DNA of 35,877 nt, from the IMG/VR virus record IMGVR_UViG_3300029888_000103; one strand, given 5' to 3'. Below are positions 22,113 through 35,877 of the stretch, piece after piece. The stretch comes from a virus (lineage: Duplodnaviria; Heunggongvirae; Uroviricota; Caudoviricetes). The translations under genes were made by a program, and so were the position numbers. Each line of letters starts with the position of its first letter. Position 1 is the first letter of the stretch. Under the pieces are notes generated by a model, which saw nothing but the letters and a program-made list of their open reading frames with translations, was not told where the DNA came from and searched no databases.

Positions 22113-23879
22113 ATGAACACCACACTGACACCCGCAGATCTCGATCCCCGTCGGCAGGCCATGCTGCTCTACTTTCAGGGATACCGCGTAGCCCGCATTG
22201 CTGAAATGCTGGGCGAGAAAGTTGCAACCGTTCACAGCTGGAAAAAACGCGACAAGTGGGGTGACTATGGGCCGCTGGATCAGATGCAGCTCACCACCAC
22301 CGCACGCTACTGCCAGCTCATTATGAAGGAGCACAAAGAAGGGAAAGATTTCAAAGAGATTGACCTGCTGGCGCGCCAGTCGGAACGCCACGCGCGGATC
22401 GGCAAGTTTAACAATGGCGGCAACGAAGCCGACTTAAACCCTAACGTCGCCAACCGCAACAAAGGCCCACGCCGTCAGCCGGAAAAGAACGTTTTCACCG
22501 ATGAACAGATTGAGAAGCTGGAAGAAATCTTCCATTCCTCCATGTTCAACTACCAGCGCCACTGGTGGGAAGCTGGAAAAACCAACCGCATCCGCAACCT
22601 GCTGAAGTCACGCCAGATCGGCGCGACCTTTTACTTTGCCCGTGAAGCCCTGATTGACGCCCTGCTTACCGGACGTAACCAGATTTTCCTTTCCGCCAGT
22701 AAGGCACAGGCTCACGTCTTTAAGCAGTACATCATCGACTTCGCTAAAGAAGTGGAGGTGGAGCTGAAAGGCGATCCGATGGTGCTTCCTAACGGGGCCA
22801 CGCTTTACTTCCTCGGCACCAATGCCCGCACGGCCCAGAGTTATCACGGCAACCTGTATCTGGATGAATATTTCTGGATACCGAAATTCCAGGAGCTGCG
22901 CAAAGTGGCTTCCGGTATGGCTATTCACAAAAAATGGCGACAAACCTATTTTTCCACGCCATCCAGCCTGACACACAGTGCTTATCCGTTCTGGTCCGGT
23001 GCGCTGTTCAACCGTGGGCGCAACAAAGCCGATAAGGTGGACATCGACCTGTCCCACAGCAATCTGGCCCCCGGCCTGCTGTGCGCAGACGGGCAATACC
23101 GCCAGATAGTCACCGTGGAAGATGCGGTGCGCGGCGGCTGTAACCTGTTCGACCTTGACCAGTTGCGCATGGAATACAGCCCGGACGAATACCAGAACCT
23201 GCTGATGTGTGAGTTCGTGGACGATCTCGCGTCCGTGTTCCCGCTCAGCGAGCTGCAGGCGTGTATGGTGGACAGCTGGGAAGTCTGGACCGACTTTCAT
23301 GCACTGGCCCTGCGCCCGTTTGGCTGGCGCGAAGTGTGGATCGGTTATGACCCGGCAAAAGGTACGCAGAACGGCGACAGCGCCGGATGCGTGGTGGTGG
23401 CACCGCCAGCCGTGCCGGGCGGTAAGTTCCGCATTCTTGAGCGTCATCAGTGGCGCGGAATGGACTTCCGCGCCCAGGCTGACGCCATCAAAAAACTGAC
23501 CGAACAGTATAACGTGACCTATATCGGCATCGACTCGACCGGCGTCGGTCACGGGGTTTACGAGAACGTGAAAGCGTTTTTTCCTGCCGTCAGGGAGTTT
23601 GTCTACAACCCCAACGTTAAAAACGCCCTGGTACTCAAGGCCTACGACATTATCAGCCACCGCCGTCTGGAGTTTGACGCCGGGCACACCGACATTGCGC
23701 AGTCATTTATGGCAATCCGTCGCGCCACCACCGCCAGCGGCAACCGCCCGACCTATGAAGCCAGTCGCAGCGAAGAAGCCAGCCACGCCGATCTGGCCTG
23801 GGCAACGATGCACGCATTGTTTAACGAACCGCTGCAGGGCGAATCCGCCAATACCAGCAATATTGTGGAGATTTTTTGA
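22113..23879 (+). CDS. P: terminase large (ATPase) subunit gpP
   Basis: 588 aa; divergent from O; position and length fit P2 gpP. Confidence 0.9.
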   Translation: MNTTLTPADLDPRRQAMLLYFQGYRVARIAEMLGEKVATVHSWKKRDKWGDYGPLDQMQLTTTARYCQLIMKEHKEGKDFKEIDLLARQSERHARIGKFNNGGNEADLNPNVANRNKGPRRQPEKNVFTDEQIEKLEEIFHSSMFNYQRHWWEAGKTNRIRNLLKSRQIGATFYFAREALIDALLTGRNQIFLSASKAQAHVFKQYIIDFAKEVEVELKGDPMVLPNGATLYFLGTNARTAQSYHGNLYLDEYFWIPKFQELRKVASGMAIHKKWRQTYFSTPSSLTHSAYPFWSGALFNRGRNKADKVDIDLSHSNLAPGLLCADGQYRQIVTVEDAVRGGCNLFDLDQLRMEYSPDEYQNLLMCEFVDDLASVFPLSELQACMVDSWEVWTDFHALALRPFGWREVWIGYDPAKGTQNGDSAGCVVVAPPAVPGGKFRILERHQWRGMDFRAQADAIKKLTEQYNVTYIGIDSTGVGHGVYENVKAFFPAVREFVYNPNVKNALVLKAYDIISHRRLEFDAGHTDIAQSFMAIRRATTASGNRPTYEASRSEEASHADLAWATMHALFNEPLQGESANTSNIVEIF

Positions 23880-24904
23880 TGGGAAAGAGTAAGAAGAACC
23901 GCGCTGCGTCACAGAACCAGACCCAGCATAAAAGCCAGACTTCAGCCGAAGCATTCAGCTTTGGCGATCCCATTCCTGTACTGGACCGCCGCGAACTGCT
24001 GGACTATGTGGAATGCGTACAGACGGATCGCTGGTATGAGCCCCCCGTAAGTTTTGACGGACTGGCGCGAACATTCCGCGCTGCCGTACACCACAGCTCA
24101 CCGATCGCAGTGAAATGCAACATTCTGACCAGCACCTACATCCCTCACCCGCTGCTCAGCCAGCAGGCTTTTTCGCGTTTTGTGCAGGACTATCTGGTTT
24201 TTGGTAACGCCTACCTGGAGAAACGCACGAACCGCTTCGGTGAAGTTATCGCCCTTGAGCCTACACTGGCAAAATACACCCGACGCGGGTTAGACCTGGA
24301 TACCTACTGGTTTGTGCAATACGGTATGACAACCCAGCCGTATCAGTTCACGAAAGGCAGCATTTTTCATCTGATGGAACCGGACATTAACCAGGAGATC
24401 TACGGCCTGCCCGGTTATCTTTCTGCCATTCCGTCAGCTCTGCTCAACGAGTCCGCCACGCTGTTCCGCCGCAAGTATTACATTAACGGCAGTCATGCAG
24501 GCTTCATCATGTACATGACCGATGCTGCGCAGAACCAGGAGGACGTGAACAACCTTCGCAATGCGATGAAAAGTGCCAAAGGACCAGGTAACTTCCGCAA
24601 TCTGTTCATGTACTCGCCTAACGGCAAAAAGGACGGGCTTCAGATCATCCCGTTGTCAGAAGTCGCGGCGAAGGATGAGTTTCTGAATATCAAAAATGTC
24701 AGCCGCGATGACATGATGGCTGCGCACCGTGTACCGCCACAAATGATGGGAATCATGCCGAGTAATGTTGGGGGATTTGGTGATGTTGAAAAAGCCAGCC
24801 GCGTCTTTGTCCGCAACGAACTGATGCCGTTACAGAAGCGACTGCAGGAGCTTAACGACTGGCTGGGCGAAGAAATAATTCGCTTCGAACCTTATATGTA
24901 TTAG
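23876..24904 (+). CDS. Q: portal protein gpQ
   Basis: 342 aa; start overlaps the P stop (ATGA); last structural gene before cos. Confidence 0.9.
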   Translation: MMGKSKKNRAASQNQTQHKSQTSAEAFSFGDPIPVLDRRELLDYVECVQTDRWYEPPVSFDGLARTFRAAVHHSSPIAVKCNILTSTYIPHPLLSQQAFSRFVQDYLVFGNAYLEKRTNRFGEVIALEPTLAKYTRRGLDLDTYWFVQYGMTTQPYQFTKGSIFHLMEPDINQEIYGLPGYLSAIPSALLNESATLFRRKYYINGSHAGFIMYMTDAAQNQEDVNNLRNAMKSAKGPGNFRNLFMYSPNGKKDGLQIIPLSEVAAKDEFLNIKNVSRDDMMAAHRVPPQMMGIMPSNVGGFGDVEKASRVFVRNELMPLQKRLQELNDWLGEEIIRFEPYMY

Positions 24905-24921
24905 ATATAGATTAGGCTCAG

Positions 24922-24955
24922 AAAGCGCCTGCTACTGCAGGCGCTTTGTTTACTC
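24922..24955 (+). terminator. intrinsic terminator after Q
   Basis: 11-bp perfect stem AAAGCGCCTGC-tact-GCAGGCGCTTT followed by a T-rich stretch; overlaps the stop of the convergent 97-aa ORF. Confidence 0.65.
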
Positions 24956-25243
24956 TTTAACAAGTGTGCCCCATACCGAGTCTTCAACCTCTTCAACAAC
25001 AATATTGATGTTGCAAATAACATGGTCTTCACTTACTCGAGTATATCTGAATAACCTTGATTTCACTTTCCCACCAAACGACTCACGGTCTTTATTGTTG
25101 GTAATGTCGACATAATCCCCAACATTCGGAAGCATCAGGAGTGGATTGTCTTCCGAAGAACATCTTACAATCTCTCCATCATCAAGAGGTCGCGTATCCC
25201 CTTTACGTAAGTATTGAAAGTCATAGTTGTATATGGTTTTCAT
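24950..25243 (-). CDS. hypothetical 97-aa protein (cargo between cos and Q)
   Basis: ATG with an AGGA Shine-Dalgarno sequence; AT-rich ORF with no recognisable motif; convergent with Q. Confidence 0.5.
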   Translation of the reverse strand: MKTIYNYDFQYLRKGDTRPLDDGEIVRCSSEDNPLLMLPNVGDYVDITNNKDRESFGGKVKSRLFRYTRVSEDHVICNINIVVEEVEDSVWGTLVKE

Positions 25244-25419
25244 TGTCTATCCTTTTGAAATTAACATCGCTGACGTATGTTGTTTCACAGTTCCATTTCC
25301 ACATTAAGTCAATGAAATCAACATCATTTAATGTGTGCCAATATAGTGCAACACGATCCCGAAAACTTCAAATCAATCTCTCCAATACGCGGGATTATTA
25401 CTTTTTCGCCCCGTTACGC

Positions 25420-25445
25420 GCGCTCGTATCCCCGCCACGCCTGCC
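25420..25445 (-). other. probable cohesive-end (cos) site
   Basis: Minus strand reads GGCGTGGCGGGGATACGAG; its first 13 nt match my recollection of the 186/P2 19-nt cohesive end (GGCGTGGCGGGGAAAGCAT / GGCGAGGCGGGGAAAGCAC); lies in the 370-bp non-coding gap on the Q side of the accessory locus, the expected place. Confidence 0.5.
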
Positions 25446-25613
25446 CGCTTTATGTAGTGGTTTTCATGCGCCTGCATGACATAAGCAAAGGCCCGCCATT
25501 CCTAGCGGGCCTCAGCTAAAACGATCCTCAAACGATCATGCGGATTCATGCGGCATAGTCATGCACTTGTGTGGTTACGAAGGAATATAGTTGCGAAAAT
25601 CGATTAAAATGCC

Positions 25614-26486
25614 TTAAGCTCTCTTAATCAACCCCTTATGCGTTGCTTTGGTAAGATAAGCTAATTCTTTAGGCCCCTTATCTCTAAAGCCCACCCATTC
25701 TGGTTGGAATTTTATAAAACTTGGAATTGCGGTTGCCAAGGCTGTAACCATACCGGGAATAATACCGCCTGAATCACCAGCAATAGCAGCATGGTACAAC
25801 GGTTTTAAAAATTCCATAACCTGCCCACCATCTACTTCTGGATTAACTTTGACTCCCATTCTGATAGGATTTCTCCATTTCCCTTCGATAGCTTTATCAA
25901 GATTAACTACAGCCTCTTGTAATAAAGAAAAATTTTTAGCCCTCGTTAGATTAGGGTCTCTAGAATAAAGGACTTCAGTATACAGTTTTTCTAAGTACTC
26001 ATGTAACGCATTAAGATCATCCTGACAATCATCTTTAAAACGTAATATATCTTCTATATGAGCATCTTTATCAGGAATTCTCAGAACATTAAACAACTCC
26101 AATCTCAACTGAAGGGCCGTTTTCTGTTCTTTATCATATATTAAATTCTCCCCTGTTTGATGAAAGTGCCAATAAGTAGCAGGCTCGTTCTTCCTGAATT
26201 CATCCAATGTCTGCAACTGAAATTCCGTATATAAAAATGGAAAGTCTTGGATATTCAGCATACCATCATGTTTCATAATAGGTCTACGTAATACCCCATT
26301 ATCTAATAATTCTTTTTCTTTAGGCACAATCGAGTGAATATTTTCACTATCTAGAATAACCACATCATCCCAGTAAAAGCAGAAATAATTAATATCCTGC
26401 TCAGTTAAACCTGCCCCAAGATAGACCGTACTATTATTTCTATGAAAACTCATTTCATTAGGATTAGCTACAATGCCACGTTTCAT
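25614..26486 (-). CDS. uncharacterised 290-aa protein in the old/tin-equivalent accessory slot
   Basis: ATG at 26486 with a strong AAGGAG Shine-Dalgarno sequence (the ORF-track start at 26510 is a GTG); AT-rich; hydrophobic C-terminal segment (DSGGIIPGMVTALATAIPSFI); no motif I can assign. Confidence 0.6.
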   Translation of the reverse strand: MKRGIVANPNEMSFHRNNSTVYLGAGLTEQDINYFCFYWDDVVILDSENIHSIVPKEKELLDNGVLRRPIMKHDGMLNIQDFPFLYTEFQLQTLDEFRKNEPATYWHFHQTGENLIYDKEQKTALQLRLELFNVLRIPDKDAHIEDILRFKDDCQDDLNALHEYLEKLYTEVLYSRDPNLTRAKNFSLLQEAVVNLDKAIEGKWRNPIRMGVKVNPEVDGGQVMEFLKPLYHAAIAGDSGGIIPGMVTALATAIPSFIKFQPEWVGFRDKGPKELAYLTKATHKGLIKRA

Positions 26487-26697
26487 TCTTGCTCCTTGAT
26501 AAGCATACACATTTTAAGAATGACATATATTCTAATAATTTCAATACATTATGAGTTATAACTAAAAGTGCAGCATAGGTCTCGCCCTGATAGATAATCA
26601 AGTGATTACTGTCTTTTTACTTATGGTTAACGCCTCTCAAGGCTCGCGGTTCAACCTTGCTGACGCCAGAAGCAGGTTCAGACGCCAGCAACGTTTC

Positions 26698-26931
26698 TTA
26701 ATGCAACCAGCTGTCGTCTTCCCACACCTTCTGCATAATTTTCATCACTTGTTTTCTTTCTTCGTCCAGTTGCAATCCGGTAAGTTCCACACCGTTAGAG
26801 CTACCTTTGCGGATACGAATTACCGTTTTGGGATACAGGGGGCGCAGATTGCGGTAAAGCTCGGATTCAAGGGCGTCCAGTGTAGACTGGCTAATCTTCT
26901 GCTCTTTATCGATCATTATTTCAATGCGCAT
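26698..26931 (-). CDS. DinI-family protein (Tum C-terminal-like)
   Basis: 77 aa from MRIEIMIDKEQKISQSTLDALESELYRNLRPLYPKTVIRIRKGSSNGVELTG...WEDDSWLH, which parallels E. coli DinI (MRIEVTIAK...); GAGGTG Shine-Dalgarno sequence before the ATG at 26931. Confidence 0.75.
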   Translation of the reverse strand: MRIEIMIDKEQKISQSTLDALESELYRNLRPLYPKTVIRIRKGSSNGVELTGLQLDEERKQVMKIMQKVWEDDSWLH

Positions 26932-26941
26932 AAAAGTCACC

Positions 26942-27130
26942 TCAGCTGATGACATCCATTGAGCGGTTGTATTCGTGGGTTCTGATTTTTGCCATGAGTT
27001 CATCTGTCAGTTCAGAAACCCACTGCAGAGCCAGCCCCTTCTCTTCATCACTACACTCACTAGCCGCTACAAGCTTAAGAAAAAAATCAATGCGCTGGAG
27101 CTTCAAAGACTCCAAAAAATAGTCCTGCAT
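26942..27130 (-). CDS. small ORF (62 aa), possible N-terminal part of a Tum-like antirepressor
   Basis: ATG at 27130 preceded by AGGAGGAAAG; a LexA box lies 40-60 bp upstream; its 3' end overlaps the DinI-like frame. Confidence 0.5.
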   Translation of the reverse strand: MQDYFLESLKLQRIDFFLKLVAASECSDEEKGLALQWVSELTDELMAKIRTHEYNRSMDVIS

Positions 27131-27170
27131 CTTTCCTCCTATGACACCAAAGCAATACTGTATACATAAC

Positions 27171-27190
27171 CACTGTTTATATTTACAGTA
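27171..27190. promoter_or_regulatory. LexA operator (SOS box)
   Basis: cACTGTttatatttACAGTA = CTGT-N8-ACAG with an AT-rich spacer, matching the TACTGT(AT)4ACAGTA consensus; an additional half-site-like TACTGTATAC lies at about 27155-27168. Confidence 0.7.
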
Positions 27191-27282
27191 TATAATAATC
27201 TTACTGATGTAAAACGTTTTTTTACGCTCATCAGCCTGATATGCCTGGTATTATTAAGAGCACGAATTGTTAACCCGCGTAA

Positions 27283-29697
27283 TTAATACAGGTTTCGCCA
27301 CTTATCATCTTCCTGCAAACGCTGGTTCCGATAGAAGATACGCAGGCCTGCTCCTGACGGAATACTGCCGCCGCGAAGGAGTAAATCGACCTCTTTCTCG
27401 CTGCCATCAAATCCCCTGGACTTCAGTTCATACACGAGCTGCAGTCGCTGATGGTCTGTAATTCGCTGTTTGTAGTCTTTACGCCGTTTCGGTTTCACCA
27501 GGCGTAACCTTGCTGCCAGTTCCCGGCGCTCTTTTTTGCTCATACTGTGCAGGTAATCGTGCAACTCCTTGTCATCCATGCGGGTGATATCCGTTCTGGT
27601 ATCTCCATCAGCTGATTTGTCTTTCCCTTGTTGGTACAAATTTTCAGCAAGGGGACAGTTATTGCCACGAGTCCAAGGGGCGCAAGCGCCCTGGTCGGCT
27701 GCCGCCTCCTGAACGTCAACGGCCTTACGAACCATTTTCCACTTCACTGCATGAGTGCAGATCTTGCCCTCTGCAATGGGTGACCAGATGCCATAAATAC
27801 GAATACCGTGATCGCCATAGGCGGTTGGCTCTTCGTTGATTTCATAAGCGGTTCTGATGAGGTGATATTTGCGGGGAACCAGTACGCCGCCCTGCTTCAT
27901 GATGTAGGTGGCAAAACAACCAGCATCAGCAGCAGCCAGAATGGCATCAAGACGCGGGTTATCCAGTACCGGCGCACCTGCTTTTTTGTCACCCTGTTGC
28001 CTTGCCGCCTGACCAGCCAGCAAGCGAAGTTCACGGTAAGCCTGACGTCCCGGAATACCAAAGAAGCGGAATTGCTGAACACGATGCAGAGACGCCCAGG
28101 CATTAACGTATTCAGCGTTATCACGCAGGGATTTACCCGTTTCCTTGCTGATCTCGCCAGCCAGACCACGCCCGTCAATGTTCTTACTGATGTATTTCGC
28201 GATGTAGCTTGTCGGCGTTCCTTTGCGCGGGTTTATCAGCTCAGATTTAAAGCGTGGACCAGTGTTATTACCCAGTTCCTCGCGGTCTTCACGGATGGCA
28301 AACTTACGCAACAATGCAGTAATGGCGCGGCGGTCTTTTTTGCGCATGAAACACAACAGGTGCCAGTGAACTGTACCGTCATGATGCGGCTCAGCCACCC
28401 GCACGCCATACCAGCGCAACCCGGCTTTGTGCATCGCCTTACGAAATGCAGCAAACATGCCGACCAGATAATCGCTGCTTTGTCTTACCGTCGCATTTGT
28501 CCAGGTTGGGTTTGGTCTGCCGTTATTGAGCGTGGAATGGAAACGTGACGGACAGGTAATGGTGTAGAAAACGGCGCAGTCACCGCGCATTTCCGCGATA
28601 AGCTCCAGACCTTTAACACAGGCCATCATCTCATTGCGGCGGTGCGCCGGGTTGCTGCTGCTGGCGTTTACCACGTCTTCCATATCCAGCGTGTCGCCCT
28701 CTTCGTTCACCAGTTCATGAGAACGGAAAAACTCCAGTGACTTGCGGCGCTGCTCACGTTTATGCATCACGGCTTCATAGCTGACATAGGGAGATGCTTT
28801 TTTGCTGACCAGGCAGACAGCACGCAACTGCTCTTCCCGCCATTCGCAACGCATTTTCCATAATTTCCGGTACCACCAGTCGGCGCACAACATACGCGCC
28901 AGCGAACCCGGAATGAGTTCATAGGGCACGGGTTTACGGCGGTTTCTTTTCCGACGGAGTTGCTCAAACGCAGGCGGGATGACATCCAGACGCAGGGTTT
29001 CCGCTGCCACCTTTTCCCATGTCTTGCGGATTTCTTCTGGCTTAACGTCATCGGTGGCATACAAATCACCACAAGCTGCATCAAGGCACATGCTCATATG
29101 CGCAGCGACAAGGGTAGACAGGCGTTTCACCTGATCCTGACTCATTTCAGGCAGAATCAGCAGGCCGTCCAGCCCTACATGGCTTGCCATAAAACGAAAA
29201 GATGCAGATAGCTGGCTGTCGCGTACATGCTCCAGTCGTTCCAGACATGGCTTAATCGTCTCACGTAAATAGCGGGAATAAGCCTTTGGCCTGCCCAGGC
29301 TGCTGAAGTATTCAATACGTTGCATCAGCGGCTTGCTGATATGGGAGGGCTGGGCGCTGACGTCTGCCAGAATGACCATGTCCGGGTTAAAACGCTGCTG
29401 CTCATGCGCCAACTTTGCCCGGCTAATGAGCTTATCCTGCTCTATTTCGCGTTGGACAGGATCACGGGATTCATTAAAGAAATAACGCTCCCAGACCTGA
29501 TCACTCAGTGCCTCGCGGCGCAGTTGTTCCTGCTCGTTATCGGCAGCGTACAGAGTGATCAGGTTTGAAAGCGCAGAAACCGGCGCAACTTCCGCCGGGT
29601 CCAGATAAGGGTTAATGGCCTTTTTCGGGCTGTTCCATGAGAACGATGCGGCAGCCTCGTTAAAGCCGCAGCAGTTGCTCATATCGGCATGGCTCAT
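27283..29697 (-). CDS. A: replication initiation protein gpA (rolling-circle initiator family)
   Basis: 804-aa ORF in the gpA position of the early operon; start overlaps the stop of the upstream methylase gene. Confidence 0.88.
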
Positions 29698-31075: not shown

Positions 31076-31417
31076 TTAATTCGGCATGGTTAGCCGTCTG
31101 GGAAATAAGCTCACCACTGCACGAAAATGATTCATTGCTTTAATCAGCTCCCGCTTTTCGTCAGTGGTCAGCTCATTAATGCTGATGCTATGACGTTCAG
31201 CTGGAATTTTTGCCATAAAGAATATGGCAGCCAGTGCTCGTTTATTTTGTTCATTATTGATATCCCGTGGATCACGCATATCTTTAATAAACCGCTCAAG
31301 CTCTGACTCAATATTCAGGCCAAAAACTTTCGCCCTTAACTCCGCAATGTGATTAAGTCCATTCAGGCGTTCACCGGGGCTTAATGGAACAGTTGCCGCA
31401 GCGCCTTCAATAGCCAT
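31076..31417 (-). CDS. hypothetical early-operon protein
   Basis: 113-aa ORF in the operon; no motif recognised. Confidence 0.5.
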   Translation of the reverse strand: MAIEGAAATVPLSPGERLNGLNHIAELRAKVFGLNIESELERFIKDMRDPRDINNEQNKRALAAIFFMAKIPAERHSISINELTTDEKRELIKAMNHFRAVVSLFPRRLTMPN

Positions 31418-32400: not shown

Positions 32401-32472
32401 AAGTACCCAAATGGGGACAAAATTGATACTAGGATCGCAAAAGAGATATGTCAACATCAAAGTACCCAAATG
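32401..32472. promoter_or_regulatory. direct repeats in the immunity switch region (candidate operator elements)
   Basis: AAGTACCCAAATG occurs twice (32401-32413 and 32460-32472), 59 bp apart, flanking the candidate promoter. Confidence 0.4.
32426..32454 (-). promoter_or_regulatory. candidate early lytic promoter (pR-like)
   Basis: Minus strand reads TTGACA-17 nt-TAGTAT; the -35 overlaps the cI start codon, so a bound repressor or polymerase here would couple the two transcription units. Confidence 0.5.
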
Positions 32473-33044
32473 AGATCAAAATAAATCCCAATAAAGGTGG
32501 TAAGGCTGCGATTGAGCGATTAGTCGAAGCTTATGGCTTTACGACACGACAGGCTTTAGCTGATCACTTGGAAGTATCAAAAAGCACTCTGGCGAACAGG
32601 TATTTGCGGGATACGTTTCCTGCAGACTGGATAATCCAATGTGCTCTTGAAACAGGAACCTCACTGAAATGGTTAACCACCGGGCAAGGCCTTAAGCAAA
32701 GCTCGCTGACAGCAGCTACAGAAGAGCTTGCCAAGTTTCGCCTTACCGCAGGCAAAATGATTGAAGATGGTTCATATGTCTTCGATTCATCATTTCTTCC
32801 TGCAAATCTTTCATCACCAATTGTTATTCAGGATGGGCTCGTCACATACATTTGTGATCAAAAATTTTCTGAAGTACTTGATGGGCACTGGTTAATCAAC
32901 ATCGACGGAACCTATTCCATTCGAAAAATCACAAAGCTTCCAAAAGGTATGATTAAAATTACAAGTACAGAGAATAGCTTTGAATGTGCATTTTCTGATA
33001 TTGAAGTAGTTGCTTGTATAAGAAGTACAATAGTTTCAAATTAA
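32448..33044 (+). CDS. cI: CI immunity repressor (186 type)
   Basis: 198 aa; N-terminal HTH region (…AIERLVEAYGFTTRQALADHLEVSKSTLANRY…ALETGTSLKWLTTGQG) and a C-terminal domain, like 186 CI in length and organisation. Confidence 0.85.
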   Translation: MSTSKYPNEIKINPNKGGKAAIERLVEAYGFTTRQALADHLEVSKSTLANRYLRDTFPADWIIQCALETGTSLKWLTTGQGLKQSSLTAATEELAKFRLTAGKMIEDGSYVFDSSFLPANLSSPIVIQDGLVTYICDQKFSEVLDGHWLINIDGTYSIRKITKLPKGMIKITSTENSFECAFSDIEVVACIRSTIVSN

Positions 33045-33064
33045 TATAGTAAAAGGATTTAAAA

Positions 33065-34741
33065 ATGAATTCATTTTCCATCGTTATATTCTTATTAGCA
33101 TTTCTCGCCCCCATTCTAGCTGTAATATTATTTAAGCAAAGCAAAAAACATAAAGCGGCTATAAATACCTTGACAGCTAACAACATAGCCCTTTCCAACC
33201 AACTGAAAGAAAATCAAGAAGAATTAGCACAGACTGTACGAGAACTATCAGAGCTTGAAGGACGAGCTGCGCCATTATGGCAATACGTAGAATTGCACAG
33301 CGCAGTGATGGAAGCAGAGAATAAGATAAAAAATGCAGACTCAATAGCCAGGCAAAAAATAGAAGAAGCCCAAATAAAGGCTGCTAAGACAGTAAACGAA
33401 GCAAATTATCAAGCTCAGATAAAAATAAGCAACGCTAATAGCGAAGCTATAGCAATTACTAAAGACGCTCGCGATGCACGCCTGAAAGCTAAAGAACGTC
33501 TTGATAATGCCAATAGTAAAGCAAATGAGCTGATCTCAAATGCTAATGACAATGCAGTGAAAATTATTTCCGATGCAGAAGAAAGAGCAAAAGAGATTGC
33601 TGGTTCAGCATATGAAGCTAAAGAGTTTGCAGAAAAATATGAAGCAGTTGCCAAATCAATGAAAAATAAAATTGAAGGTTATGGTGATGAATGGATCATC
33701 CCTAACCGTAGCGTTCTCGATGAATTGGCAGAAAATTATGAGTTTACAGATGCAGGTAAGGAATTACAAAAAGCCAGGGAGTTAACAAAATCATTAATAA
33801 AAACTAATAAAGCTGCTTCGTGTGATTATGTTGAACAAAACAGGCGTAATACTGCTATCAACTTTGTTTTAGATGCCTTCAATGGAAGAGTTGACAGTAT
33901 TTTATCAAAAGTCAAACACAACAATTTTGGAAAACTTTCCCAAGAGATAAAAGATGCGTTTCAACTTGTAAATTACAATGGTTCTGCCTTTAGGTCCGCA
34001 AAAATAAGTGACATCTATCTTCAAGCTCGACTCAACGAGCTAAAATGGGGAGTTGCAGTTAATGAAATTATGCTCGAAGAAAAAGAAGAGCAAAGAAGGA
34101 TTAAAGAACAACTTCGTGAAGAGGAAAGAGCTCGTAGGGAGTATGAAAAAGCGATAAAAGAAGCTGAAAAAGAAGAGAAAGCTATTCAGCAAGCTATAAA
34201 TAAAGCAACAAAAGAGCTTATGCTTGCAAATGAAGAACAACGCTTAGCTTTAGAGCAAAAAATAGCTGAACTACAGTTAAAATATGAAGAAGCTGAAGCT
34301 AAAAACCAACGAGCTATTTCTATGGCTCAACAAACTAGATCAGGCCACGTTTATATAATTAGTAATATTGGCTCATTTGGCGAAGATGTATATAAAATTG
34401 GAATGACACGCCGCCTTGAACCACTTGATCGTGTTCGTGAACTCGGTGATGCTAGTGTTCCTTTTTCGTTCGATGTTCATGCGATGATTTATAGTGATGA
34501 TGCACCATCATTAGAAAATCATCTGCATAAAGTCTTCAACGAAAAACAGGTCAATAAAATTAACTCACGAAAAGAGTTTTTCAACGTAAATATTAAAGAA
34601 ATTAAGTCTGTTATTGAAGATATGAACATCAACGCACAATGGACAATGTTTGCGGAAGCGAAAGAATATAGAGAGTCACTGGCGATTGAGCAAGAGCGCA
34701 AAGCAGCAACTTCCGCCAACGATGAACTGCATGTTGCTTAG
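33065..34741 (+). CDS. membrane-anchored coiled-coil protein with DUF4041-like and T5orf172/GIY-YIG-like C-terminal module (cargo)
   Basis: 558 aa; N-terminal TM helix (FSIVIFLLAFLAPILAVILF), about 250 aa of A/K/E/N/Q-rich heptad-like sequence, and a C-terminal region GHVYIISN...VYKIGMTRRLEPLDRVRELG...FDVHAMIYSDDAPSLENHLHKVF that I recognise as T5orf172-like; AAGGA Shine-Dalgarno sequence; 20 bp after the cI stop. Confidence 0.8.
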   Translation: MNSFSIVIFLLAFLAPILAVILFKQSKKHKAAINTLTANNIALSNQLKENQEELAQTVRELSELEGRAAPLWQYVELHSAVMEAENKIKNADSIARQKIEEAQIKAAKTVNEANYQAQIKISNANSEAIAITKDARDARLKAKERLDNANSKANELISNANDNAVKIISDAEERAKEIAGSAYEAKEFAEKYEAVAKSMKNKIEGYGDEWIIPNRSVLDELAENYEFTDAGKELQKARELTKSLIKTNKAASCDYVEQNRRNTAINFVLDAFNGRVDSILSKVKHNNFGKLSQEIKDAFQLVNYNGSAFRSAKISDIYLQARLNELKWGVAVNEIMLEEKEEQRRIKEQLREEERARREYEKAIKEAEKEEKAIQQAINKATKELMLANEEQRLALEQKIAELQLKYEEAEAKNQRAISMAQQTRSGHVYIISNIGSFGEDVYKIGMTRRLEPLDRVRELGDASVPFSFDVHAMIYSDDAPSLENHLHKVFNEKQVNKINSRKEFFNVNIKEIKSVIEDMNINAQWTMFAEAKEYRESLAIEQERKAATSANDELHVA

Positions 34742-34799
34742 CAATGTATGTTTCATAGTAATCACACATTGATTACTGGTTGTATATACAGTTAAATTT

Positions 34800-34824
34800 A
34801 GCCCTCTGATATGAGGGCTTTTTT
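34800..34824 (+). terminator. intrinsic terminator abutting the int start codon
   Basis: AGCCCTC-tgatat-GAGGGCT followed by TTTTT, then immediately the int ATG at 34825. Confidence 0.6.
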
Positions 34825-35877
34825 ATGGCAGTACGAAAACTCACCACAGGAAAATGGCTTTGCGAATGTTACCCCGCCGGACGTAGTGGACGTCGTGTGC
34901 GTAAACAATTCGCCACCAAAGGCGAAGCTCTGGCTTTTGAGCGTCACACGATGGAAGAAACCGAAGCAAAGCCCTGGCTGGGTGAATCAGTGGATCGTCG
35001 AACACTGAAAGACGTGGTTGAACTATGGTTCAAACTACATGGTAAATCTCTGACAGCTGGGCAGCATGTCTATGACAAATTGCTGTTGATGGTTGACGCT
35101 CTGGGCAATCCTCTTGCAACCGATCTCACCTCTAAAATGTTTGCCCACTATCGAGATAAACGCCTGACAGGCGAGATCTACTTCAGCGAGAAATGGAAGA
35201 AAGGAGCAAGCCCGGTCACCATTAACCTGGAGCAAAGCTATCTAAGTAGTGTTTTTAGCGAACTATCCCGTCTGGGCGAATGGTCGTATCCGAACCCACT
35301 GGAGAACATGCGAAAATTCACCATCGCAGAAAAAGAGATGGCATGGCTTACCCATGAGCAGATTGTTGAATTGCTGGCTGATTGCAAACGTCAGGACCCA
35401 ATTCTGGCACTGGTAGTTAAGATATGCTTAAGCACAGGCGCACGCTGGCGTGAAGCCGTAAATCTTACTCGCTCACAGGTGACCAAATACCGAATTACCT
35501 TTGTCAGAACGAAGGGGAAGAAAAACAGAAGCATCCCTATCAGTAAAGAGCTTTACGAAGAGATCATGGCGCTTGATGGGTTCAATTTCTTCACAGACTG
35601 CTATTTTCAATTTTTATCCGTGATGGAAAAAACGTCTATCGTGCTCCCTCGCGGTCAACTCACACACGTTCTGCGCCATACGTTTGCGGCGCACTTCATG
35701 ATGTCGGGTGGAAACATTCTGGCCTTACAAAAAATTCTCGGACACCACGATATAAAAATGACTATGCGTTACGCACATCTGGCACCGGATCATCTGGAAA
35801 CGGCGCTCCGTTTCAATCCTCTGGCAACGCTGCCAAGTGGCGACAAAGTGGCGGCAGCGGTTGGCATTACCCCGTAA
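34825..35877 (+). CDS. int: tyrosine integrase (P2/186 Int family)
   Basis: 350 aa; N-terminal MAVRKLTTGKWLCECYP...KQFATKGEALAFERHT parallels P2 Int (MAIKKLDDGRYEVDIRPTG...KFDKKSEAVAFEKYT); C-terminal catalytic region with ARWREA..., HVLRHTFAAHFMMSGG and RYAHL motifs; the stop codon is the last triplet of the window. Confidence 0.92.
   Translation: MAVRKLTTGKWLCECYPAGRSGRRVRKQFATKGEALAFERHTMEETEAKPWLGESVDRRTLKDVVELWFKLHGKSLTAGQHVYDKLLLMVDALGNPLATDLTSKMFAHYRDKRLTGEIYFSEKWKKGASPVTINLEQSYLSSVFSELSRLGEWSYPNPLENMRKFTIAEKEMAWLTHEQIVELLADCKRQDPILALVVKICLSTGARWREAVNLTRSQVTKYRITFVRTKGKKNRSIPISKELYEEIMALDGFNFFTDCYFQFLSVMEKTSIVLPRGQLTHVLRHTFAAHFMMSGGNILALQKILGHHDIKMTMRYAHLAPDHLETALRFNPLATLPSGDKVAAAVGITP

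Follow-up and report, generated by a model that had tools for sequence, protein, structure and literature searches.

Introduction

What is a 1.7-kb gene doing between repressor and integrase in a P2/186-like prophage, and what might it be worth to a lysogen? The question arises from a window of 35,877 nucleotides (the whole stretch of viral DNA analysed here), for which an initial annotation had proposed a candidate single-gene anti-phage or abortive-infection effector of unknown mechanism, horizontally acquired and lodged inside the repressor operon. We argue below that it is very probably a divergent SNIPE (PD-lambda-1) gene, providing single-protein, direct anti-phage defence and travelling as cargo of a 186-like myovirus prophage. 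As a discovery this is modest: PADLOC and current RefSeq already label the gene, it belongs to an anti-phage family that has already been described, and both the kind of defence gene and the kind of site are familiar.

PD-lambda-1 was discovered by functional selection in the Escherichia coli pangenome as the ECOR26 protein RCP76574.1, and its protection against lambda was shown experimentally in 2022 (Vassallo et al. 2022, PMC9519451). It has since been renamed SNIPE and its mechanism characterised (Saxton et al., Nature 2026, PMC13190303), so the ‘unknown mechanism’ of the initial annotation is outdated. SNIPE begins with a single-pass N-terminal transmembrane (TM) helix, has DUF4041 at its centre and ends in a GIY-YIG nuclease, and it resides constitutively at the inner membrane; the substitution E414A costs it its defence, and removal of the TM helix makes it toxic through chromosomal double-strand breaks (PMC13190303). 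DUF4041, which has a conserved, positively charged face for DNA binding, binds DNA and contacts the tape measure proteins of siphoviruses, and 32P-labelled lambda DNA is fragmented by SNIPE during injection, with the infected cells surviving without lysis, the mark of a direct defence (PMC13190303). Prophage induction is unaffected, and activity is confined to siphoviruses, with no protection against any myovirus or podovirus of the BASEL collection (PMC13190303).

A gene between repressor and integrase

The open reading frame occupies positions 33065-34741 on the + strand, as do all features described here, and encodes 558 aa from ATG to TAG. Upstream stands the gene for a 186-type CI immunity repressor, with which the lysogenic operon opens (32448-33044; Pfam Phage_CI_repr E=8e-32, Phage_CI_C E=4e-27), and downstream that for a tyrosine integrase (34825-35877; Int_N E=3e-32, Phage_integrase E=7e-22), which forms the right border of both the cargo slot and the prophage; past this border, E. 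coli L73 has the chromosomal gene rcdA. The TAA of cI is followed by a spacer of exactly 20 nt (TATAGTAAAAGGATTTAAAA) and then by the ATG of the SNIPE-family gene. Read from the sequence, this spacer holds a Shine-Dalgarno-like AAGGA (33053-33057), 7 nt 5' of the start codon, and it leaves no room for a promoter of the gene's own. A terminator scan found no terminator at the cI-to-SNIPE junction and a terminator-like hairpin 3' of the SNIPE gene, at 34800-34819 within the conserved right flank of the slot (34742-34824), followed by a T-run reaching as far as the int ATG. The position between cI and int is compatible with expression as part of the lysogenic operon. Phage 186 has an int start that overlaps the stop of cI, with both genes in the annotated pL/pE lysogenic operon, and in phage P2 116 nt separate C and int.

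Composition sets the gene apart as well. Its GC content is 36.8% (GC3 27%), compared with 39.9% for cI, 48.6% for int and 55.0% for the structural region (3500-24500). On all of these points (a 1.7-kb gene between repressor and integrase, a start 20 bp past the cI stop with its own Shine-Dalgarno sequence, the adjacency of the two flanking genes in P2 and 186, and a GC content well below that of the structural genes) the initial annotation had read the locus correctly.

Architecture of the encoded protein

Only residues ~4-23 of the protein form a hydrophobic segment: the 19-residue Kyte-Doolittle mean reaches 3.0 there, and no other stretch exceeds 1.6; a single N-terminal TM helix is accordingly predicted at aa 4-23 (33074-33133). 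A basic cluster, KQSKKHK, follows directly on its C-terminal side and predicts an N-out, C-in topology, and the N-terminus of SNIPE (MTQTPLLLAIIFLLVVLVLYIAAIKRIKK) has the same layout of TM helix followed by basic residues. Next comes a variable coiled-coil ‘adapter’ region, assigned from composition and model to aa 24-215 (33134-33709): A, E, K, N and Q make up 56% of residues 29-215, which the AF2 model draws as one continuous helix. The membrane anchor and long A/K/E/N/Q-rich coiled coil of the initial annotation are both predicted here. Profile matches within the coiled coil are sub-threshold only (DivIVA, E=0.0026; ATP-synt_B, E=0.016), and TM helices joined to DivIVA-like or ATP-synthase-b-like coiled-coil N-termini are already catalogued among SNIPE homologues.

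Beyond the adapter lies the DUF4041 globular region, aa 216-335 (33710-34069; Pfam and model), with the Pfam match itself (PF13250) covering residues 267-322 (33863-34030; E=3.1e-12, 46.6 bits against a cut-off of 27) and the region carrying a net charge of +1. A long helical linker, aa 336-422 (34070-34330; model and BLASTP alignment), connects it to a GIY-YIG nuclease domain at aa 427-520 (34343-34624; Pfam and motif residues), which is matched by both T5orf172 (E=1e-16) and MUG113 (E=2e-19). The DUF4041, T5orf172 and MUG113 scores all exceed the Pfam curated cut-offs, and the KIGMTRR...ELG motif is present (YKIGMTRRLEPLDRVRELGDAS), which bears out the proposal of a DUF4041 protein with a T5orf172/GIY-YIG-like C-terminus. 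Other profile collections were less forthcoming: NCBIfam yielded sub-threshold coiled-coil matches only (DivIVA_Wag31, SMC), and the PHROGs match, phrog_1847, is annotated ‘unknown function’. The phage records OM835953 and ON470620 label the protein a ‘chromosome segregation ATPase’; we reject this label, and an SMC assignment with it, because Pfam finds no ATPase domain, and the SMC_prok_A coiled-coil match is sub-threshold at 15.5 bits against a cut-off of 729.

Relationship to the characterised protein

Family membership is carried by profile and pairwise comparison. The PADLOC model for PD-Lambda-1, PDLC03976, matches at E=4.4e-120, aligning residues 102-550 of the protein with 38-481 of the model's 491 positions, and a second PD-Lambda-1 model, PDLC03977, matches at E=2.5e-116; the gene is very probably, as first proposed, a single-gene anti-phage system. 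For direct comparison the sequence of characterised SNIPE was recovered as a 500-aa protein at L004:3023-4525, a copy that matches the published primers oDS30, oDS31, oDS47 and oDS93, which between them cover the N-terminus, the C-terminus, delta-TM and E414A, and has all nine of the residues mutated in the published work (E414, L253, E264, K305, E223, T319, W257, I308 and N250). In strain SCU-313 (L002) the reference-type SNIPE ORF is truncated, two of its A-runs each being one A too long, and L004 was used instead.

BLASTP aligns the window protein with characterised SNIPE at E=6e-86 and 38% identity over 460 aa, a homology that runs from about aa 141, where the N-terminal coiled coil ends, to the C-terminus. 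It is unevenly spread. Within the nuclease domain the majority of residues are identical (APSLENHLH in the window protein, APSLEKKLH in SNIPE), identity declines through the linker helices to its minimum in the DUF4041 region, and the first ~140 residues cannot be aligned at all, except for the common TM-then-basic layout. An alignment of 81 family sequences has the same slope, with conservation of 0.72 in the nuclease, 0.58 in the linker, 0.46 in DUF4041 and 0.22 in the N-terminus, in agreement with the gradient published for SNIPE. The accession of the window protein was not found among the published SNIPE homologues in the available part of the SNIPE paper's supplementary text.

Nuclease domain and predicted structure

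The initial annotation had suggested that profile and structure searches of the C-terminus be used to look for GIY-YIG catalytic residues, and these are there: Y430, Y443-K-I-G446, R449/R450, E484 (34514-34516) and N497/N500, with E484 aligning with the catalytic E414 of SNIPE. Across 70 diverse representatives Y430, G436, G439, G446, T448, E459, F469, E484, N497 and F506 are invariant. With GIY and YIG motifs, the arginine, the catalytic glutamate, the asparagine and, in the predicted model, a beta-beta-alpha-beta-alpha core, the features of the GIY-YIG superfamily are present. An earlier AF2 model, built on a shallow alignment of 25 sequences at >=81% identity, was discarded at pLDDT 54.5; the model built from the 70 diverse representatives reached 80.8. 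It places a TM helix and long-helix N-terminus ahead of a helical DUF4041, which is confidently modelled (block pLDDT 81-93 over aa 221-330), followed by two long linker helices (316-387 and 390-422) and the nuclease core.

The only compact, low-rmsd globular matches to this model in the PDB are the GIY-YIG nucleases Slx1 and HIGLE (Foldseek probability 0.89 for 4xm5), the remainder being coiled-coil noise. Searching the PDB by sequence with the nuclease domain brought up no solved SNIPE-family structure, the best match being a designed ankyrin protein at E=0.054. Slx1 and HIGLE are structure-specific nucleases of the GIY-YIG (URI) type, 11-14% identical to the window protein; being eukaryotic DNA-repair enzymes that have neither TM helix nor DUF4041, they are, on the predicted model, fold relatives only.

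A nuclease predicted to be tethered to the membrane of its own host invites a darker reading, in which it is released or activated on infection, degrades the host DNA and kills the cell. SNIPE stripped of its TM helix is toxic and breaks the chromosome (PMC13190303), and many GIY-YIG or T5orf172 proteins of prophages are uncharacterised. Cells carrying characterised SNIPE, however, survive infection and grow at high multiplicity of infection, unlike the abortive-infection control PD-lambda-3 (PMC13190303), and the window protein is predicted to retain both the TM anchor and the full SNIPE architecture. An abortive or toxic effector, the alternative that the initial annotation had left standing, is disfavoured, since the characterised member of the family is a direct defence, and we consider it very improbable; direct defence is the reading that we carry forward.

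The cI-int slot

Among IMG/VR records, 80 loci were surveyed in which the integrase is >=99% identical to that of the window, and these allow the comparison with prophages lacking the insert that had been envisaged from the start. SNIPE is present in 12 of the 80, and in all 12 the neighbouring CI is 95-100% identical to the window CI; loci with any other CI type have no SNIPE. At about 41 of the 80 loci only ~400 nt lie between cI and int, and most such spacers hold a 67-aa ORF with a signal peptide. Elsewhere the slot contains P2 Old (PADLOC E=9e-235), PDC-S20 (a KAP NTPase), PDC-M18A, PDC-M11A or an AriA/Old-like ATPase, together with the cargo of Klebsiella phage 4LV2017 and several proteins without a match. 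PADLOC gave no match for the 4LV2017 cargo, for other cargo in the window's own A-Q hotspot or for the extra genes found beside SNIPE in Citrobacter and Raoultella. In relatives with different cargo, homology to the window in every case resumes at 34742-34762, directly past the SNIPE stop, and on the left it breaks at or inside cI.

Among relatives that share the integrase, the cI-int slot is occupied by Old, PDC-S20, PDC-M11A or PDC-M18A, or by next to nothing, and it is therefore a defence hotspot, one in which cargo and immunity type switch together. The gene is, as had been supposed, horizontally acquired cargo of that slot.

The coupling to a single CI type can be read another way, with the family unchanged and the job different: SNIPE here would be the superinfection-exclusion partner of the repressor, directed against heteroimmune P2/186-like myoviruses or other non-siphoviruses and not against lambda-like phages. 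The strict linkage (all 12 SNIPE loci, none with other CI types) favours such a partnership, as does the similar divergence of cI and SNIPE across seven Enterobacteriaceae species (CI 81-100%, SNIPE 80-100%) and an N-terminal adapter that cannot be aligned with the tested protein, ahead of a weakly aligning DUF4041. Against it, characterised SNIPE is inactive on all BASEL myoviruses and podoviruses (PMC13190303), and linkage to CI may reflect nothing beyond physical adjacency in one recombination module. On balance we judge this improbable as an account of the gene, and continue with the reading of a SNIPE-type direct defence.

Distribution

The window-type gene is present in 166 of 5,426 complete E. 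coli genomes, compared with 131 that have reference-type SNIPE, and its hosts extend to Klebsiella, Citrobacter, Salmonella, Enterobacter and others. Identical genes go by two names, ‘DUF4041 domain-containing protein’ in older RefSeq records and ‘SNIPE associated domain-containing protein’ in newer ones. Copies 78-100% identical are found in 11 Enterobacteriaceae species representatives, in seven of which the order cI-SNIPE-int is kept (three of the seven with one extra gene before int). The family at large is far bigger: a library of representatives at 50% identity contains 3,385 at E<=1e-3 and 1,412 at E<=1e-30. Outside the Enterobacteriaceae the nearest relatives are in Chryseobacterium, other Bacteroidota and Clostridium, at 50-62% identity; these are closer to the window protein than the E. 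coli reference is, which is consistent with the low GC of the window gene.

Might the gene simply be looking after itself, as a selfish element akin to a GIY-YIG homing endonuclease, or be an inactive passenger that brings the lysogen no benefit? Homing endonucleases do include T5orf172/GIY-YIG domains, low GC and sharply defined insertion boundaries would suit such an element, and one near-identical homologue in Streptococcus thermophilus is inactive (PMC12322248). Yet the 558-aa ORF is intact in those 11 species representatives, with an invariant active site, its TM and DUF4041 architecture is unlike that of homing endonucleases, and the other cargo of the same slot consists of defence genes. 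A selfish or idle gene is scarcely credible on this evidence, and defence is again the preferred reading.

Proposed mode of action

In a lysogen, the SNIPE-family gene would be transcribed together with cI from the lysogenic promoter, as the spacing of the two genes and the 186 paradigm suggest, with transcription probably stopping at the hairpin and T-run. By analogy with the characterised homologue, the protein would insert in the inner membrane with its N-terminus out and its bulk in the cytoplasm, and would be kept inactive there, held away from the chromosome. On injection by a foreign phage, DUF4041 may engage the tape measure protein of the injection apparatus along with the DNA, and the nuclease would then shred the entering genome at the site of injection, leaving the cell alive. 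Induction of the gene's own prophage should be unhindered, with lysogen and resident prophage both spared.

How far the known target range carries over is another matter. Two PD-Lambda-1 homologues of S. thermophilus, 98.5% identical to each other, are completely different in activity (PMC12322248); homology is therefore no basis for deducing either activity or spectrum. A different recognition target may apply to the 558-aa subtype, because its adapter is unalignable with the tested protein and its DUF4041 aligns weakly, and cI and SNIPE may evolve as one module, because the gene is strictly coupled to one CI type in the lysogenic operon. Taken together, these observations make it conceivable, if rather unlikely, that the subtype uses an injection apparatus or host partner other than ManYZ and lambda-type tape measure proteins, and that cI and SNIPE form a co-evolving, two-layer module of ‘immunity plus entry-nuclease’, perhaps acting on heteroimmune P2/186-like myoviruses.

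Window-type SNIPE is in any case a natural and widespread subtype and, with its unalignable adapter and divergent DUF4041, a ready-made comparison for the determinants of phage specificity in SNIPE. Located inside the cI operon, it is also a clean case of a defence gene tied to lysogeny, and the cI-int slot, its limits now placed with nucleotide precision, offers a place to look for the unannotated cargo proteins of relatives.

Comparison with known systems

Defence cargo sites are familiar in P2-like prophages, where old and tin lie between replication gene A and portal gene Q and fun lies at the Z/fun locus (PMC9519451; PMC13586616). A minor hotspot ‘between integrase and primase’, accounting for 8% of P2 systems, has been reported too (PMC9519451; PMC13586616), so the slot is already noted, coarsely, in the literature. 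Window and P2-like hotspots have in common AT-rich defence cargo and a fixed position, prone to recombination, in a Peduoviridae prophage. The slot of the window lies within the lysogenic operon, bounded by cI and int, and its cargo switches with the immunity type; the published account gives only the integrase-primase interval.

PD-Lambda-1 EU01 of S. thermophilus falls in the same PADLOC family as the window protein, protects against siphoviruses and has no fitness cost once integrated in the chromosome (PMC12322248). It differs in its Gram-positive host and chromosomal locus (PMC12322248).

Closest in kind is ECOR26 SNIPE itself (RCP76574.1 / WP_000195116.1), which, like the window gene, is a single, prophage-borne, AT-rich gene matching the same PADLOC model and encoding, in order, a TM helix, a variable helical region, DUF4041, a long helix and a GIY-YIG/T5orf172 nuclease. 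The window protein is the longer, at 558 aa against 500, with some 70 additional residues ahead of DUF4041. The loci also differ: ECOR26-type SNIPE sits in a lambdoid prophage between ren and a P22AR-domain gene, whereas the window gene lies between cI and int in the prophage of a 186-like myovirus and seems to have no promoter of its own.

Cargo of the cI-int slot

The slot between the repressor gene cI and the integrase gene int, filled in the window by the anti-phage nuclease gene SNIPE, carries other cargo in relatives of this prophage, selected as IMG/VR loci whose integrase is at least 99% identical to the window's (L126 (L126:6001-1917..), L151, L135, L154, L166, L118, L160 and L161). 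This cargo includes Old; PDC-S20; PDC-M18A, paired with a 173-aa transmembrane (TM) protein; PDC-M11A, accompanied by a 123-aa ORF and by a 354-aa protein for which no match was found; a 662-aa AriA/Old-like ATPase; and unmatched proteins of 488 aa, 329 aa (coiled coil and TM) and 260 aa. The unmatched proteins of these relatives are candidates for a role in defence. Klebsiella phage 4LV2017 (L006:3268-5086) shares its integrase and cII region with the window and has a different CI, annotated at 313 aa and with two stretches matching the Phage_CI_repr HTH domain. Its 349-aa slot protein matched nothing in either Pfam or PADLOC, and in related loci is followed by a 226-aa multi-TM protein.

The slot is able to house two cargo genes, since three prophages carry an additional AT-rich gene between SNIPE and int: those of Enterobacteriaceae MGYG-HGUT-00110 (L009:5716-6645), Raoultella planticola (L016:5661-6590) and Citrobacter pasteurii (L010:5789-6649). 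The products are 309 or 286 aa in length, and none of the three genes had a significant match in PADLOC. 'Empty' slots, with a cI-int spacer of ~400 nt, occur in about 40 IMG/VR loci besides L152, L101 and L144. Most of these hold a 67-aa ORF with a signal peptide, the mature part being rich in Cys (MYKEINMFYKSIHILLICLFITLPITSFAKNYPCSGKKGG...), and PADLOC returned no match for this ORF.

SNIPE in existing records

In the reference-type SNIPE of E. coli SCU-313 (L002:6983-8486), two A-runs near the 5' end are each longer by a single A, and RefSeq therefore annotates a 466-aa protein with a GTG start and no TM helix. With the same query, the span in other records of the match table is 2 nt shorter than in SCU-313, and the copy in L004 retains an intact 500-aa CDS. 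The two extra bases are probably a homopolymer sequencing error, not phase variation. The cI-SNIPE-int module of the window also occurs, at 96-97% identity, in OM835953.1 (Klebsiella phage KP12) and ON470620.1 (Escherichia phage vB_EcoM-813R9), where the SNIPE gene is labelled 'chromosome segregation ATPase', a name we reject as a coiled-coil artefact.

Variation elsewhere in the prophage

The classical P2 hotspot, which in the window (24905-27283) is AT-rich with a GC content of 0.34-0.44, is bordered by the genes for portal Q (23876-24904) and for replication endonuclease A (27283-29697). Three genes lie here on the minus strand, encoding a 97-aa ORF without a match (24950-25243), a 298-aa DUF6236 protein (25614-26510; Pfam E=1e-20) and a DinI/Tum-like product (26698-27003), none of which was matched by PADLOC. 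An uncharacterised defence system may be encoded here, with the 97-aa ORF and the DUF6236 protein as its candidate components. The close relative in E. coli L73 carries different cargo at this hotspot, namely a dsDNA nuclease-domain protein and an HNH endonuclease.

Many relatives, among the IMG/VR loci and including 4LV2017, contain ~245 additional bases at window position 31415-31417, a site that lies upstream of the DUF5347 gene within the early lytic operon. The stretch is absent from both the window and E. coli L73. This difference is a small indel polymorphism.

A conserved hairpin before int

Irrespective of cargo type, all relatives keep a strong terminator-like hairpin before int, which in the window (34800-34824) consists of AGCCCTCTGATATGAGGGCT followed by TTTTT, its end abutting the int start codon. 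Either int depends on transcription from pE/pL that reads through or is antiterminated, or the hairpin regulates int translation. A comparable element is not annotated in phage 186, where cI overlaps int.
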